DNA of 64,000 nt from Deltaproteobacteria bacterium (GCA_005879795.1 VBKJ01000127.1:7427-71426); one strand, 5' to 3'; counted from the stretch's first letter, positions 37,135-40,680 are shown. The notes: generated by a model not told the origin, from the sequence alone. A program made the numbers and translations.

Positions 37135-38931
37135 ATGGGTGACGAGACGCAGGCGACGGGCGAGGTGGCGGGGGCGACCTGGCTGGTGGCGGCGGTCGGC
37201 TCGGTGCCACAGTTCACGGGCGCCGACTTCACCGACGACGACCGGCTCTACGCCAAGACCGCCGAGGACTTCGTGCGCAACGAGGTCCTGCCCCGCCTGG
37301 AGGAGATCGAGGCGAAGGAGGCGGGCGTCATGCCGGCACTGCTCAAGCGTGCGGGCGAGCTCGGCCTGCTCATGGTGGACATCCCGGAGAAGTACGGCGG
37401 GCTCGGGCTGCGCAAGACGACCTCGATGCTGGTCTCGGAGCACGGAGCGCTGTGCGCCTCGTTCAGCGTCTCGTGGGGCGCCCACACGGGCATCGGAACC
37501 CTGCCGCTGGTCTACTACGGGACCGAGGCGCAAAAGCAGAAGTACCTGCCGCGGCTCGCGACCGGCGAGTGGCTCGCCGCCTACGCCCTCACTGAGCCGG
37601 GCTCGGGCAGCGACGCGCTCGCGGCCCGCACGGTGGCCACCCCCGAGGACGGCGGCTACCGGCTGAGCGGCACCAAGCAGTTCATCACCAACGCCGGCTT
37701 CGCCGACCTCTTCACCGTCTTCGCCAAGGTGGGCGGCGAGCACTTCACCGCCTTCCTGGTCGAGCGCGCCACGCCCGGGCTTTCGACCGGCCCCGAGGAG
37801 AAGAAGCTCGGCATCCGCGGCTCGTCGACGCGCCAGGTGATCCTGGAGGACGCGCGCGCCGGCACCGACAAGGTGCTCGGCCAGGTGGGGCAGGGGCACA
37901 AGATCGCGTTCAACATCCTCAACATCGGCCGCTTCAAGCTGGGCGCGGGCTCGGTCGGGGCGGCCAAGGACTGCCTGGCGGTCGCCCTCCAGTACGCGAA
38001 GGAGCGCCAGCAGTTCCGCCGGCCCATCGCGAGCTTCGGCATGATCCAGCGCAAGCTCGCCGACATGGCGACGCGCATCTACGTCGCCGACAGCATGAGC
38101 TACCGGACGGCCGGCCTGATGGACGCGGCGGCCGAGCGCCTGGACCCGTCGGGGGCCGACTACGCCGAGCGCCTGGTGCGTGAATCGGTCGAGGAGTACA
38201 CGATCGAGGCCTCGATCCTGAAGGTGTTCGGCACCGAGACGCTCGACTTCGTGGCCGACGAGTCGCTCCAGATCCTGGGCGGCTACGGCTTCACGGCCGA
38301 GTATCCGGTCGAGCGGCATTACCGCGACGCGCGCATCAACCGCATCTTCGAGGGCACGAACGAGATCAACCGCCTCATCATCCCGGCGACGCTGGTGAAG
38401 CGCATCGGCCAGGGCCGGCTGCCGTACGCGGACTTCTTTCAGCAGGTGGATCGCGAGATCGCGGACCGCGCGAGCTGGCCGCCCGCCGTGAAGGGCCCGC
38501 TCGAGCGCGAGCTGCGCGCGGCGGAGGTGGCGAAGCGGGTGATCGCCTACACTGCGCGCGTGCTCATCGAGCGGGACCTCGCCTCGCTCAAGGACAAGCA
38601 GCAGCACCTCGAGATCCTCGCCAACATGATCATCGACTGCTACGCCATGGACAGCGTGGTGAACCGCACCCGGCTGCTCGCCGGCCACGGCAGCCCCGAG
38701 GACGACGGGCTCCGCCTGGCCATGACCAACGTCTTCGTCTCCTCCGCCAACGAGCGCGTCATCGATGGCGCCCGCCGCCTCCTGGTGAACGAGCTCGAGG
38801 GCGAGGAGCTGCGCAGGCACCTCGCCCTCGAGGCGATCGTGCCGCACATGCCGATCCGCACGATCGCGGTGAAGACGCGGATCGCCGAGGCGCTCGTCGC
38901 GCGCGGGCTCGGGCCGGTGTTCCTGCGCTAG
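37135..38931 (+). CDS. Long acyl-CoA dehydrogenase, about 600 aa (FadE-like)
   Basis: Contains YALTEPGSGSDALAA...GTKQFITN. Confidence 0.85.
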   Translation: MGDETQATGEVAGATWLVAAVGSVPQFTGADFTDDDRLYAKTAEDFVRNEVLPRLEEIEAKEAGVMPALLKRAGELGLLMVDIPEKYGGLGLRKTTSMLVSEHGALCASFSVSWGAHTGIGTLPLVYYGTEAQKQKYLPRLATGEWLAAYALTEPGSGSDALAARTVATPEDGGYRLSGTKQFITNAGFADLFTVFAKVGGEHFTAFLVERATPGLSTGPEEKKLGIRGSSTRQVILEDARAGTDKVLGQVGQGHKIAFNILNIGRFKLGAGSVGAAKDCLAVALQYAKERQQFRRPIASFGMIQRKLADMATRIYVADSMSYRTAGLMDAAAERLDPSGADYAERLVRESVEEYTIEASILKVFGTETLDFVADESLQILGGYGFTAEYPVERHYRDARINRIFEGTNEINRLIIPATLVKRIGQGRLPYADFFQQVDREIADRASWPPAVKGPLERELRAAEVAKRVIAYTARVLIERDLASLKDKQQHLEILANMIIDCYAMDSVVNRTRLLAGHGSPEDDGLRLAMTNVFVSSANERVIDGARRLLVNELEGEELRRHLALEAIVPHMPIRTIAVKTRIAEALVARGLGPVFLR

Positions 38932-39113
38932 CCCCGCGCGGGCGAGCGCCGGCCGGCACGCACCGTGCTCTTGCGCAGCTTCTCCTCCAAGGCGGCGGCC
39001 ACGAACTCCATGACCGAGATGCCGTGTTGCACGCAGAACAGCTTGATCTCGCGGTGCAGGCCCTTGGGGATGCGGGTCGCGAGCTGGATGAGCACGTCGT
39101 CTTCCTTAGCCAT
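38928..39113 (-). CDS. Ribbon-helix-helix (CopG/Arc/ParG-like) DNA-binding protein, 61 aa
   Basis: Starts MAKEDDVLIQLATRIPKGLHREIKLFCVQHGISVMEFVAAALEEKL. GC3-rich. Overlaps the ACAD stop. Confidence 0.55.
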   Translation of the reverse strand: MAKEDDVLIQLATRIPKGLHREIKLFCVQHGISVMEFVAAALEEKLRKSTVRAGRRSPARG

Positions 39114-39214
39114 GACCCCGGGACCTCCTGGGTCGCGCGCTCGGGCGCGACGAAGAGCTATTTAACTTAGAAGGGGGCTTGCCGCAAACGCGCGGGCGGG
39201 GGTCGGCCTCCTGG

Positions 39215-39667
39215 CTAGGAGCGGGGCGCCGTACGGTGGCCGAGCGCCTGCAGGTTGCCCTCGACCCTCTCGAGCTGCCGCGCCAGGTCGCGGATGTGAA
39301 GCTGCGCGCGCACCCGGGCGAGGAGCTCGATCCGGTTGATCGGCTTGGTCAGGAACTCGCTCACGCCGCGGTGCATACCCTCGAGGCGCACGTCAATGTC
39401 GTCACGGGCCGTGAGCAGGATGATGGGGATGCGCTTGCCCGCCTGGTGCAGCGCCTCACACACGGCGAAGCCGTCCATGCCGGGCATCATCACGTCGAGG
39501 AGGATCACGTCGATCGGCTCGGCGAGGGCGATGCGCACGGCTTCCTCGCCGGAGGCGGCGCGCCGGGTGTGGTAGCCGCTGCGCTCGAGCAGGTGGCCCA
39601 GGATCGTGCGGCAGTCGGCGTCGTCGTCGACGACCAGGATGGTCGCCTCCGCGGTGGTAGTCGTCAT
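39215..39667 (-). CDS. Stand-alone CheY-like receiver-domain response regulator, 150 aa
   Basis: Contains ILVVDDDADCR...DVILLDVMMPGMDGF...ILLTARDD. ATGA-coupled downstream of the sigma-54 activator gene. Confidence 0.85.
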   Translation of the reverse strand: MTTTTAEATILVVDDDADCRTILGHLLERSGYHTRRAASGEEAVRIALAEPIDVILLDVMMPGMDGFAVCEALHQAGKRIPIILLTARDDIDVRLEGMHRGVSEFLTKPINRIELLARVRAQLHIRDLARQLERVEGNLQALGHRTAPRS

Positions 39668-40680
39668 TCGGAGACCTCCGGCTCGTCGTCGATCTCGGCG
39701 GCGCCCCGGCGGCGGCGGAGCTTGGCCACCAGGGTGGTGCGCTTGAGTCCGAGGAGGCGTGCCGCGGCCTGCTTGTTGCCCTTGGTGCGGCGTAGGGCCT
39801 CCTCGATCAGGCGGTTCTCGAACTCCTCGACCGCGCTGTTGAGATCGAGGCCGTCCTCGCCCAGGGCCGGCCGCGGAATCTTCTTCTCGGAGATGAAGGA
39901 GCGGATGCTGGGCGGCAGGTGCTCGACCGCGATGCGGCCGTCCTCGGAGAGGATCACCAGGCGCTCGAGCAGGTTCTCGAGCTCGCGCACGTTGCCTGGC
40001 CAGTCGTACTCCCAGAGGTGGGCCATCGCCTCCTCGGCGATCTCGGCGGGACGGCCGGGCCGCTTGCGGTTGTGCTTGTCGAGGAAATGGCGGACGAGGA
40101 GGGGGATGTCCGAGCGCCGCTCGCGCAGGGGGGGCATGACGATGGGGATCACCTGCAGCCGGTAGAAGAGGTCCTCGCGGAAGTTCCCGGTCTCGACCTC
40201 CACCGCCAGCTCCTTGTTGGAGGCAGCGATCACACGCACGTCGACCTTGAGCACGCGGTCGGCGCCGACCGGGCGGACCTCACGGTCCTGGAGCACGCGC
40301 AGCAGCTTCACCTGGAGGGTGGGGCTCATCTCGCCCACCTCGTCCAGGAAGATCGAGCCGCCGTTGGCGAGCTGGAACATGCCGGCGCGCTGCCCGATCG
40401 CGCCCGTGAACGCGCCGCGCTCGTGGCCGAACATCTCGGATTCGAGCAGCTCGGCAGGGATCGCGCCGCAGTTGACCGGGATGAAGGGGCGATCGGCGCG
40501 GGGGCTCGCGGCGTGGATCGCGCGCGCGACCAGCTCCTTGCCGGTGCCGCTCTCCCCCGAGATGAGGATGGTGGCGTCGGTCACCGCCACCTTCTTGACG
40601 AGCAGCCCGATCTTCTGGATGAGCGGGTGCTCGCCGATCAGGTAGGGATGACCCTCTGGGTTGCCGTTGACCGGGCTCAC
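39664..40680 (-). CDS. Sigma-54-dependent transcriptional activator lacking a receiver domain (AAA+ + Fis-type HTH)
   Basis: Walker [15 protein letters not shown] motif. Walker B IFLDEV. C-terminal [19 protein letters not shown]. Confidence 0.9.

Follow-up and report, generated by a model that had tools for sequence, protein, structure and literature searches.

Organization of the locus

This analysis concerns a pair of adjacent regulatory genes in a 64-kb stretch of DNA (the window) from a Deltaproteobacteria bacterium (GCA_005879795.1, VBKJ01000127.1:7427-71426). The first gene encodes a sigma-54 enhancer-binding protein (EBP) made up of an AAA+ domain and a helix-turn-helix (HTH), and the second encodes a stand-alone CheY-like receiver (REC). 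A small open reading frame (ORF) of 61 aa follows, separated from REC by a spacer of 101 bp. The three genes are on the minus strand; an acyl-CoA dehydrogenase gene flanks them in convergent orientation on one side and the rph-rdgB-tRNA cluster in divergent orientation on the other. All three have coding-type codon bias (GC3 0.93-0.95, GC2 0.41-0.43). Their coordinates, with the basis of each assignment, are as follows.

39664..40680 (-): EBP, sigma-54 activator, 338 aa, GTG start (Pfam, NCBIfam, sequence)
39664..39667 (-): ATGA overlap of the EBP stop TGA and the REC start ATG, 4 shared bases, translational coupling (sequence)
39215..39667 (-): REC, stand-alone receiver, 150 aa (Pfam PF00072, 106 bits; alignments; AlphaFold2; Foldseek/PDB)
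38928..39113 (-): 61-aa ORF, probable ribbon-helix-helix (RHH) protein (codon bias, conservation, sub-threshold matches, AlphaFold2)

The original prediction, made from the window alone, had described a sigma-54 activator with GAFTGA and a Fis-type HTH but no receiver, followed immediately by a 150-aa receiver whose start overlaps the activator's stop. The domain and motif analysis agrees with the first part of this description, and the coordinates of the second hold.

Exact or near-exact copies of the locus occur in soil-metagenome contigs and in metagenome-assembled genomes (MAGs) that bear one of two labels, "Candidatus Binatia bacterium" and "Deltaproteobacteria bacterium". The G+C content of the window is 64-78% per 2-kb block (68-74% in most blocks). 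No signs of mobile elements were found around the EBP-REC module, the surroundings of which are ordinary chromosome.

The activator

Three Pfam domains, and no others, are found in EBP: Sigma54_activat (PF00158; residues 14-180, E = 2.9e-69, 232.5 bits against a cut-off of 20.2), AAA_lid_14 (residues 186-261), and HTH_8 (residues 284-323). The motifs of the AAA+ domain, which is of clade 6, are intact, including Walker A (GESGTGKE, residues 42-49), Walker B (D113-E114), sensor I (N155), sensor II (R232), and the arginine-finger region (FREDLFYR, residues 167-174). The sigma-54 contact loop, GAFTGA, is at residues 89-94, and no second copy of it appears when the window is translated in all six frames. 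Because the catalytic motifs and GAFTGA are intact, EBP should, as predicted from its sequence, function as a sigma-54-dependent ATPase.

Ahead of the AAA+ domain there are only 13 residues. The original prediction had considered that a receiver might be present upstream in frame if another start were used. No such hidden N-terminal receiver exists, because an in-frame TAG lies eight codons 5' of the GTG start and the divergent rph gene, which begins at 40821, is only 140 bp from the EBP gene.

40702..40704 (-): in-frame TAG, eight codons 5' of the EBP GTG (sequence)
40681..40820 (-): rph-EBP divergent spacer, 140 bp (alignment of relatives, sequence)

The same architecture is seen in more than 120 clusters of EBP homologues (82-94% identity, 324-358 aa), all of which are without a receiver domain (PF00072), and hundreds of EBP clusters at 90% identity are present in the metagenome collection.

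EBP therefore lacks the receiver fused N-terminally to AAA+ that characterizes the NtrC family, and it scores below the NCBIfam equivalog cut-offs for NtrC (347.5 vs 558.6), AtoC (342.9 vs 714), and ZraR (311.1 vs 760), nor does it reach the equivalog level for GlrR. It is not a PspF orthologue either (TIGR02974, 260.2 vs 443.55; PRK11608, 216.6 vs 529). EBP thus attains none of the NCBIfam equivalog levels, and these EBPs are misnamed in the databases, as "AtoC" or as "regulator with PAS, ATPase and Fis domain". With AAA+ and HTH only, and no regulatory (R) domain, EBP resembles group 4 of the bacterial enhancer-binding proteins (bEBPs). In bEBPs without an R domain (group 4; PspF, HrpR/S), control is exerted by a protein that binds in trans (PMC7175178, Table 1).

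The receiver

The Response_reg domain of REC spans residues 10-120 (E = 1.3e-30, 106.3 bits against a cut-off of 30.2). D14, D15, D58 (the phospho-acceptor), T86, F105, K108, and P109 are invariant in alignments of 40 family members, and REC looks phosphorylatable on this sequence evidence. The alignment-based AlphaFold2 model (mean pLDDT 89.7) has the canonical (beta-alpha)5 fold, with strands at residues 9-13, 33-37, 54-58, 82-87, and 104-108, and its helix alpha5 runs unbroken over residues 112-145.

The original prediction had given REC a C-terminal coiled-coil tail. In the model the tail is indeed one long helix; its pairing as a coiled coil is plausible from the 3-4-3-4-3 spacing of a/d-type hydrophobic residues over positions 125-142 (I125, L128, L132, V135, L139, and L142).

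Among solved structures, the closest relative of REC is the first receiver (D1) of PleD (113 bits, 39-41% identity, E = 1e-31), and the alignment reaches into the helix that follows alpha5. Receivers of the OmpR/PhoP type score 79-91 bits, that of NtrC 64, and that of DctD 56. The NCBIfam models rank in the same manner, with PleD, OmpR, RpaB, and MtrA above AtoC and NtrC. RssB of P. aeruginosa is among the best structural matches that cover the long helix (TMq 0.84, Foldseek), and NtrX is also among the structural matches.

Conservation of the gene pair

Ten non-identical relatives were informative, with loci L092 and L093 counted together; L102 (P0258) was left out, because its contig ends too soon 3' of EBP. 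An EBP gene followed by an adjacent REC gene on the same strand is found in 10 of these 10 relatives, and so REC, for which the original prediction had allowed the possibility of an unlinked position in related genomes, is linked throughout. The EBPs are 86-89% identical to that of the window in L091, L092/L093, and L094, 82% in L099, 69% in L101, 65% in L011, 62-64% in L100, L097, and L095, and 61% in the P0253 contig. The RECs are less conserved, with identities of 61-66% in L091-L094 and 43-47% in the loci with different flanking genes.

The arrangement of the surrounding genes falls off in steps. L091, L092/L093, and L094 keep the full order of rdgB, rph, EBP, REC, the 61-aa gene, and a hypothetical gene of 128-154 aa. 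L099 keeps rph-rdgB and the EBP-REC pair without the 61-aa gene, and in L101, L011, L100, L097, L095, and the P0253 contig the flanking genes are wholly different from those of the window. The pair thus occurs in at least four neighbourhoods, namely next to rph-rdgB, next to NMT1, adh_short, and DctM genes, next to tRNA synthetase genes, and beside a divergent EBP-kinase-EBP operon. In the distant loci a receiver-only gene of 139-160 aa follows EBP on the same strand; at the extremes, the two genes overlap by 32 nt or stand 105 nt apart. The 4-nt overlap of the window recurs in L091 and L094, and that in L092 is 1 nt, while the gaps in the more distant loci measure 9-105 nt.

One alternative is that the adjacency is only the inherited synteny of close relatives, with no functional link. 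Such an explanation suits L091-L094 and L099, which share the entire rph-rdgB neighbourhood with the window. It is nevertheless disfavoured and very improbable, because the pair is kept in the six loci in which all flanks differ, where REC has diverged to 43-47% identity.

A stand-alone REC directly 3' of EBP is absent from all the other EBP loci fetched, the FleQ-like clade included. Among these loci without a 3' REC are five that encode short domain-less EBPs (L013, L044, L063, L073, and L084). In a scan of genome contigs with EBP, in which generic motifs drew many matches, most of the matches listed were NtrC-type genes of the ordinary kind, and L011 was the one informative locus among them.

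In neighbour-joining trees, the paired EBPs form a single clade apart from the FleQ-like and the REC-fused EBPs, and the partner RECs form a single clade among 59 receivers. The branching within the REC clade (the Binatia group; L095/L097/L100; L101/L011) mirrors that of the EBP tree. Since each protein forms one clade and the topologies match, the sequences indicate that the EBP and REC genes have been co-inherited over a long divergence.

The receiver tree also bears on the origin of the pair, which the original prediction had taken to be a split, domain-order-inverted NtrC. According to this proposal, an NtrC-type gene (REC-AAA-HTH) underwent fission, and the receiver, relocated to a downstream position, continues to dock in the manner of the former R domain. 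In the AAA+/HTH region, the nearest REC-containing EBPs (P0259 and P0260) are 56-58% identical to EBP, and the long alpha5 recalls the receiver-linker helix of NtrX, DctD, and NtrC1, the first of which is one of the structural matches noted above; both are as fission would have it. The affinities of REC itself are against it, since the bit scores and the NCBIfam ranking given above favour PleD D1 over NtrC and DctD, and the REC clade groups with PleD D1 and non-EBP receivers, outside about 45 EBP-fused receivers. Fission therefore appears improbable, and a "split and inverted NtrC" fits the domain inventory of the module but is unsupported as its history. This verdict is provisional, because the trees are without bootstrap support.

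Candidate promoters, targets and kinases

The rph-EBP spacer presumably holds the promoter of the operon. It contains a conserved block, CTGTTACTTTTTTAGCAC (40716-40699), 19-36 nt 5' of the EBP GTG, which is kept in L091 and L094. This block holds one of only five A/T runs of at least 7 nt in the window, two of which flank the EBP-REC operon. An AAGGA at 40689-40685 is the likely ribosome-binding site of EBP. No match to a sigma-54 or sigma-70 consensus was found in the 140-bp spacer, and a sigma-70 promoter and terminator scan of 36000-43000 gave no calls.

Scans for sigma-54 promoters covered the window and nine related loci. The original prediction had proposed a search of window and genome for such promoters (GG-N10-GC). 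In the window, 15 matches to TGGCAC-N5-TTGCW were found against 15.4 expected, and none is conserved beside the pair in the Binatia-type loci. GG- and GC-containing strings are present in the rph-EBP spacer of L092-L094 and do not align with each other. An inverted-repeat search of eight spacers found nothing common. The rpoN gene is not in the window.

One site in the window stands apart. CGGCACGAGCATTGCT, at 46335-46320 (-), is the only match in the window with at most one mismatch to TGGCACG-N4-TTGCW (0.35 expected). It is intergenic, 5.6 kb from the pair, and lies about 68 nt 5' of the ATG (46252) of a gene at 44459-46252 (-) for a membrane PAS-HisKA-HATPase kinase. On the match to the consensus, CGGCACGAGCATTGCT is a possible sigma-54 promoter and a candidate target of EBP.

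Another arrangement is seen in L011 and L101. There, an operon that runs divergently from the pair encodes, in this order, a REC-less EBP, a PAS kinase, and a REC-EBP, which is the order of FleQ/FleS/FleR. This operon is preceded by near-perfect predicted sigma-54 promoters, TGGCACTGGCATTGCT and TGGCACCATCTTTGCT.

L011 2250-4252 and L101 1-3258 (-): operon of REC-less EBP, PAS kinase, and REC-EBP, divergent from the EBP-REC pair
L011 4252-4237 and 2998-2983, and L101 3258-3243 (-): predicted sigma-54 promoters (sigma-54 scan)

L098 has an operon of the same type with two sigma-54 promoters, followed by a flagellar rod gene (weak Pfam match). This arrangement suggests that the pair may activate a FleQ-like cascade in the L011 and L101 lineages. 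A palindrome resembling GGCRAAWWWTTYGCC, noted by eye 5' of the L011 and L101 promoters, has no match in the window.

Two further observations were made on these loci. A GTTAnTTTTT string about 125 nt 5' of the L011 and L101 sigma-54 promoters resembles CTGTTACTTTTTTAGCAC, by eye only. In the L011 MAG, the genes for both EBPs and for the PAS kinase are frameshifted, which probably reflects errors in sequencing or assembly and not the presence of pseudogenes.

With regard to kinases, a HisKA-HATPase gene about 2.5 kb from the pair is found in L091 and L094 only (L091 9992-11104, L094 10937-12076). It encodes a kinase of 370-379 aa, lies between CoA-transferase and AMP-binding genes, and is a candidate for the cognate kinase of REC in these two loci. 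The window has no kinase gene at the matching position. At 43073-44376 (-), a 118-aa ORF with DUF4118 precedes a second ORF, in which just the end of HisKA, a complete HATPase_c, and a receiver truncated at about 52 profile positions are found; the two have the look of a single hybrid histidine kinase gene interrupted by frameshifts or by errors of assembly.

Proposed regulation in trans and its alternatives

From the above it appears, with a probability of about one half, that the pair is a conserved two-gene operon in which a phosphorylatable REC regulates a PspF-like, domain-less EBP in trans. The idea is strengthened by the finding that the paired EBPs and RECs each form one clade with congruent branching. 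What the sequences show is the gene structure, the domains, the intact catalytic residues, the strictly conserved adjacency, and the co-divergence of the two genes; that EBP and REC interact physically, in which direction, with which kinase, and at which promoters is inferred.

The proposed mechanism would run as follows. A histidine kinase encoded elsewhere would set the phosphorylation state of D58. REC, made in step with EBP through the ATGA coupling, would bind EBP non-covalently, and the binding would gate the assembly of the ring, its ATPase activity, or its contact with sigma-54, so that REC would serve as a detachable R domain. Whether relieved or imposed by phosphorylation, inhibition is slightly favoured as the mode of action, by analogy with PspA-PspF, HrpV-HrpS, NifL-NifA, and FleN-FleQ, which to our knowledge comprise every known trans-regulated bEBP. 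More tentatively, REC may be a true non-covalent regulatory subunit that switches the AAA+ ring, the two proteins forming a "two-piece response regulator", which in L011 and L101 would be the top tier above a sigma-54-dependent FleQ/FleS/FleR-like cascade.

The main rival explanation is that the two genes are co-expressed and their products make no contact, REC being a phosphate sink, a connector, or an independent phosphorelay output, and EBP being constitutive and controlled by its expression or by another factor. Domain-less EBPs can act alone; PspF(1-275) and the R-domain-deleted forms of NtrC1, DctD, and XylR are active by themselves.

Several observations weigh against regulation of EBP by REC, and the first three of them count equally in favour of the absence of contact. 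REC is of a common, generic PleD/OmpR-like type, and extended alpha5 helices are widespread; therefore, no specificity for binding an AAA+ ring can be read from the REC sequence. No fusion of the order AAA-HTH-REC (a "Rosetta stone") was found among 10 candidates scanned from the 150 best representatives; all 10 have an N-terminal AAA+, the longer of them have insertions ahead of the HTH, one has a TIR domain, and a C-terminal receiver is seen in none. The tight coupling of EBP and REC by overlap is confined to the Binatia subclade, and L100 and L101 have wider gaps, of 45-105 nt. In addition, both trees on which the congruence is seen are neighbour-joining trees that lack bootstrap values, the Binatia-type loci show neither a convincing sigma-54 promoter nor a common upstream activator site next to the pair, and no tightly linked histidine kinase is present in the window, the nearest being at 43073-46252 (-), past rph, rdgB, and four tRNA genes.

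On the other side, adjacency and co-divergence of the pair hold down to 61% EBP identity through changing neighbourhoods, which would be unusual for genes that do not serve a common function. The ATGA coupling points to production of the two proteins in matched amounts, and a sigma-54 activator without regulation would be atypical. Co-expression without contact is therefore considered rather unlikely, and regulation of EBP by REC in trans is the favoured reading.

Relation to known systems

Known sigma-54 activators, a classic example of modular signal input, receive this input either through a fused sensory domain or, in a few domain-less ones (PspF and HrpR/S), through a dedicated partner that is not a receiver. 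The EBP-REC pair resembles several of these systems in part. With PspF-PspA of E. coli (group 4) it shares an activator of AAA+ and HTH only, for which regulation in trans by another protein is to be expected. EBP is, however, no orthologue of PspF, the partner in that system is the PspA/IM30 coiled-coil protein and not a CheY-like receiver, and no psp genes are nearby. HrpR/HrpS-HrpV of Pseudomonas syringae likewise combines domain-less sigma-54 activators with a small regulator encoded in the same gene cluster, but HrpR and HrpS are a paralogous hetero-hexamer pair governed by a chain of anti-activator and anti-anti-activator, whereas here a single EBP is present and a phosphorelay input is predicted.

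NtrC, NtrC1, and DctD (group 1) are built from the same receiver, AAA+, and Fis-type HTH modules and have a similar long alpha5/linker-like helix. In these proteins the receiver is fused N-terminally, while REC is a separate polypeptide encoded after the activator and is not of the NtrC receiver class. FleQ-FleN, too, is a case of an EBP modulated by another polypeptide; that partner, FleN, is a MinD-type ATPase and not a receiver, and the FleQ-like EBPs form a separate clade without a stand-alone receiver as neighbour.

Phosphorylation-dependent action of a receiver in trans on an AAA+ hexamer is known from CpdR and RssB with ClpX. The targets in those cases are proteolytic unfoldases, and homology to the present pair is limited to the receiver fold. 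PleD, which contains the closest solved relative of REC, continues with a second receiver and a GGDEF output, whereas REC ends after its helix.

Full-text literature searches found no account of a stand-alone receiver as the partner of a domain-less bEBP, which is weak evidence of absence. The module may be described as a bEBP resembling group 4 whose trans partner is of a new type; its genomic association is strong and its mechanism inferred. If the favoured reading is true, the pair represents a new wiring of two-component signalling to an AAA+ machine through a separate phosphorylatable receiver, a mode of bEBP control outside the current five-group classification, and a natural system for the action of a receiver on an AAA+ ring without a covalent tether. 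Soil Binatia and uncultured lineages related to them have this class of regulators in abundance, and its annotation ("AtoC" and PAS labels) needs correcting.

The 61-aa gene

The 61-aa ORF is, on sequence evidence, a real gene, because of its codon bias (GC3 0.93, GC2 0.43) and its conservation in relatives (73-83% identity in L091, L092, and L094). The original prediction had called the product an RHH protein. No family model reaches its threshold (HicB, 14.4 against a cut-off of 21; RHH_10, 13.3 against 27), and the call is therefore sub-threshold. The matches below threshold include the omega repressor 2bnw (E = 0.035; range 0.035-0.05), HicB (E = 0.037), RHH_10 (E = 0.11), and a CopG-family protein. 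The single-sequence AlphaFold2 model (mean pLDDT 69) has two confident helices, at residues 17-30 and 34-53; its N-terminal segment is modelled as a low-confidence helix, with no strand. The top Foldseek matches of the model are almost all RHH proteins (StnY/CopG, AmrZ, ParG, Arc, and CopG), every one with E of at least 0.25. Taken together, the matches and the model suggest that the product is probably a small DNA-binding protein of the RHH type.

The gene was also thought to be the third part of a regulatory module. It is absent 3' of the EBP-REC pair in six loci (L099, L011, L095, L097, L100, and L101) and is seen only in the closest Binatia-type loci, so that co-occurrence extends to the pair and not to the triplet. 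Ahead of the gene stands a separate conserved AT-rich element:

39155..39187 (-): spacer element TTGC-N14-CTAAGTTAAATAGCTC, read 39187-39155 (alignment of relatives)

The element includes another of the five A/T runs of the window (39159-39165) and is a possible candidate for a separate promoter or operator of the 61-aa gene. The sigma-70 consensus scan made no call on it, and the evidence for this assignment is its conservation. Because of the restriction to the closest Binatia relatives and the conserved AT-rich element, the 61-aa gene is considered a lineage-specific neighbour, probably with its own promoter, outside the conserved core.

Other features of the window

Convergent to the 61-aa gene is an ORF of 154 aa (36624-37088 (+)), which has no Pfam match and the true start of which is possibly internal (MSGFDGE...). 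It is kept in all the Binatia-type loci and is 128-154 aa long in L091-L094. A tRNA cluster (Pro-Arg-His-Lys, 42224-42613 (+)) lies immediately 3' of rdgB, and the housekeeping cluster tig-clpP-clpX-lon is at 47136-52839 (+). Outside the window, the EBP homologue P0332 (747 aa) has Sigma54_activat, AAA_lid_14, and HTH_8 together with a C-terminal TIR_2 domain (356-477) and is a sigma-54 activator-TIR fusion.

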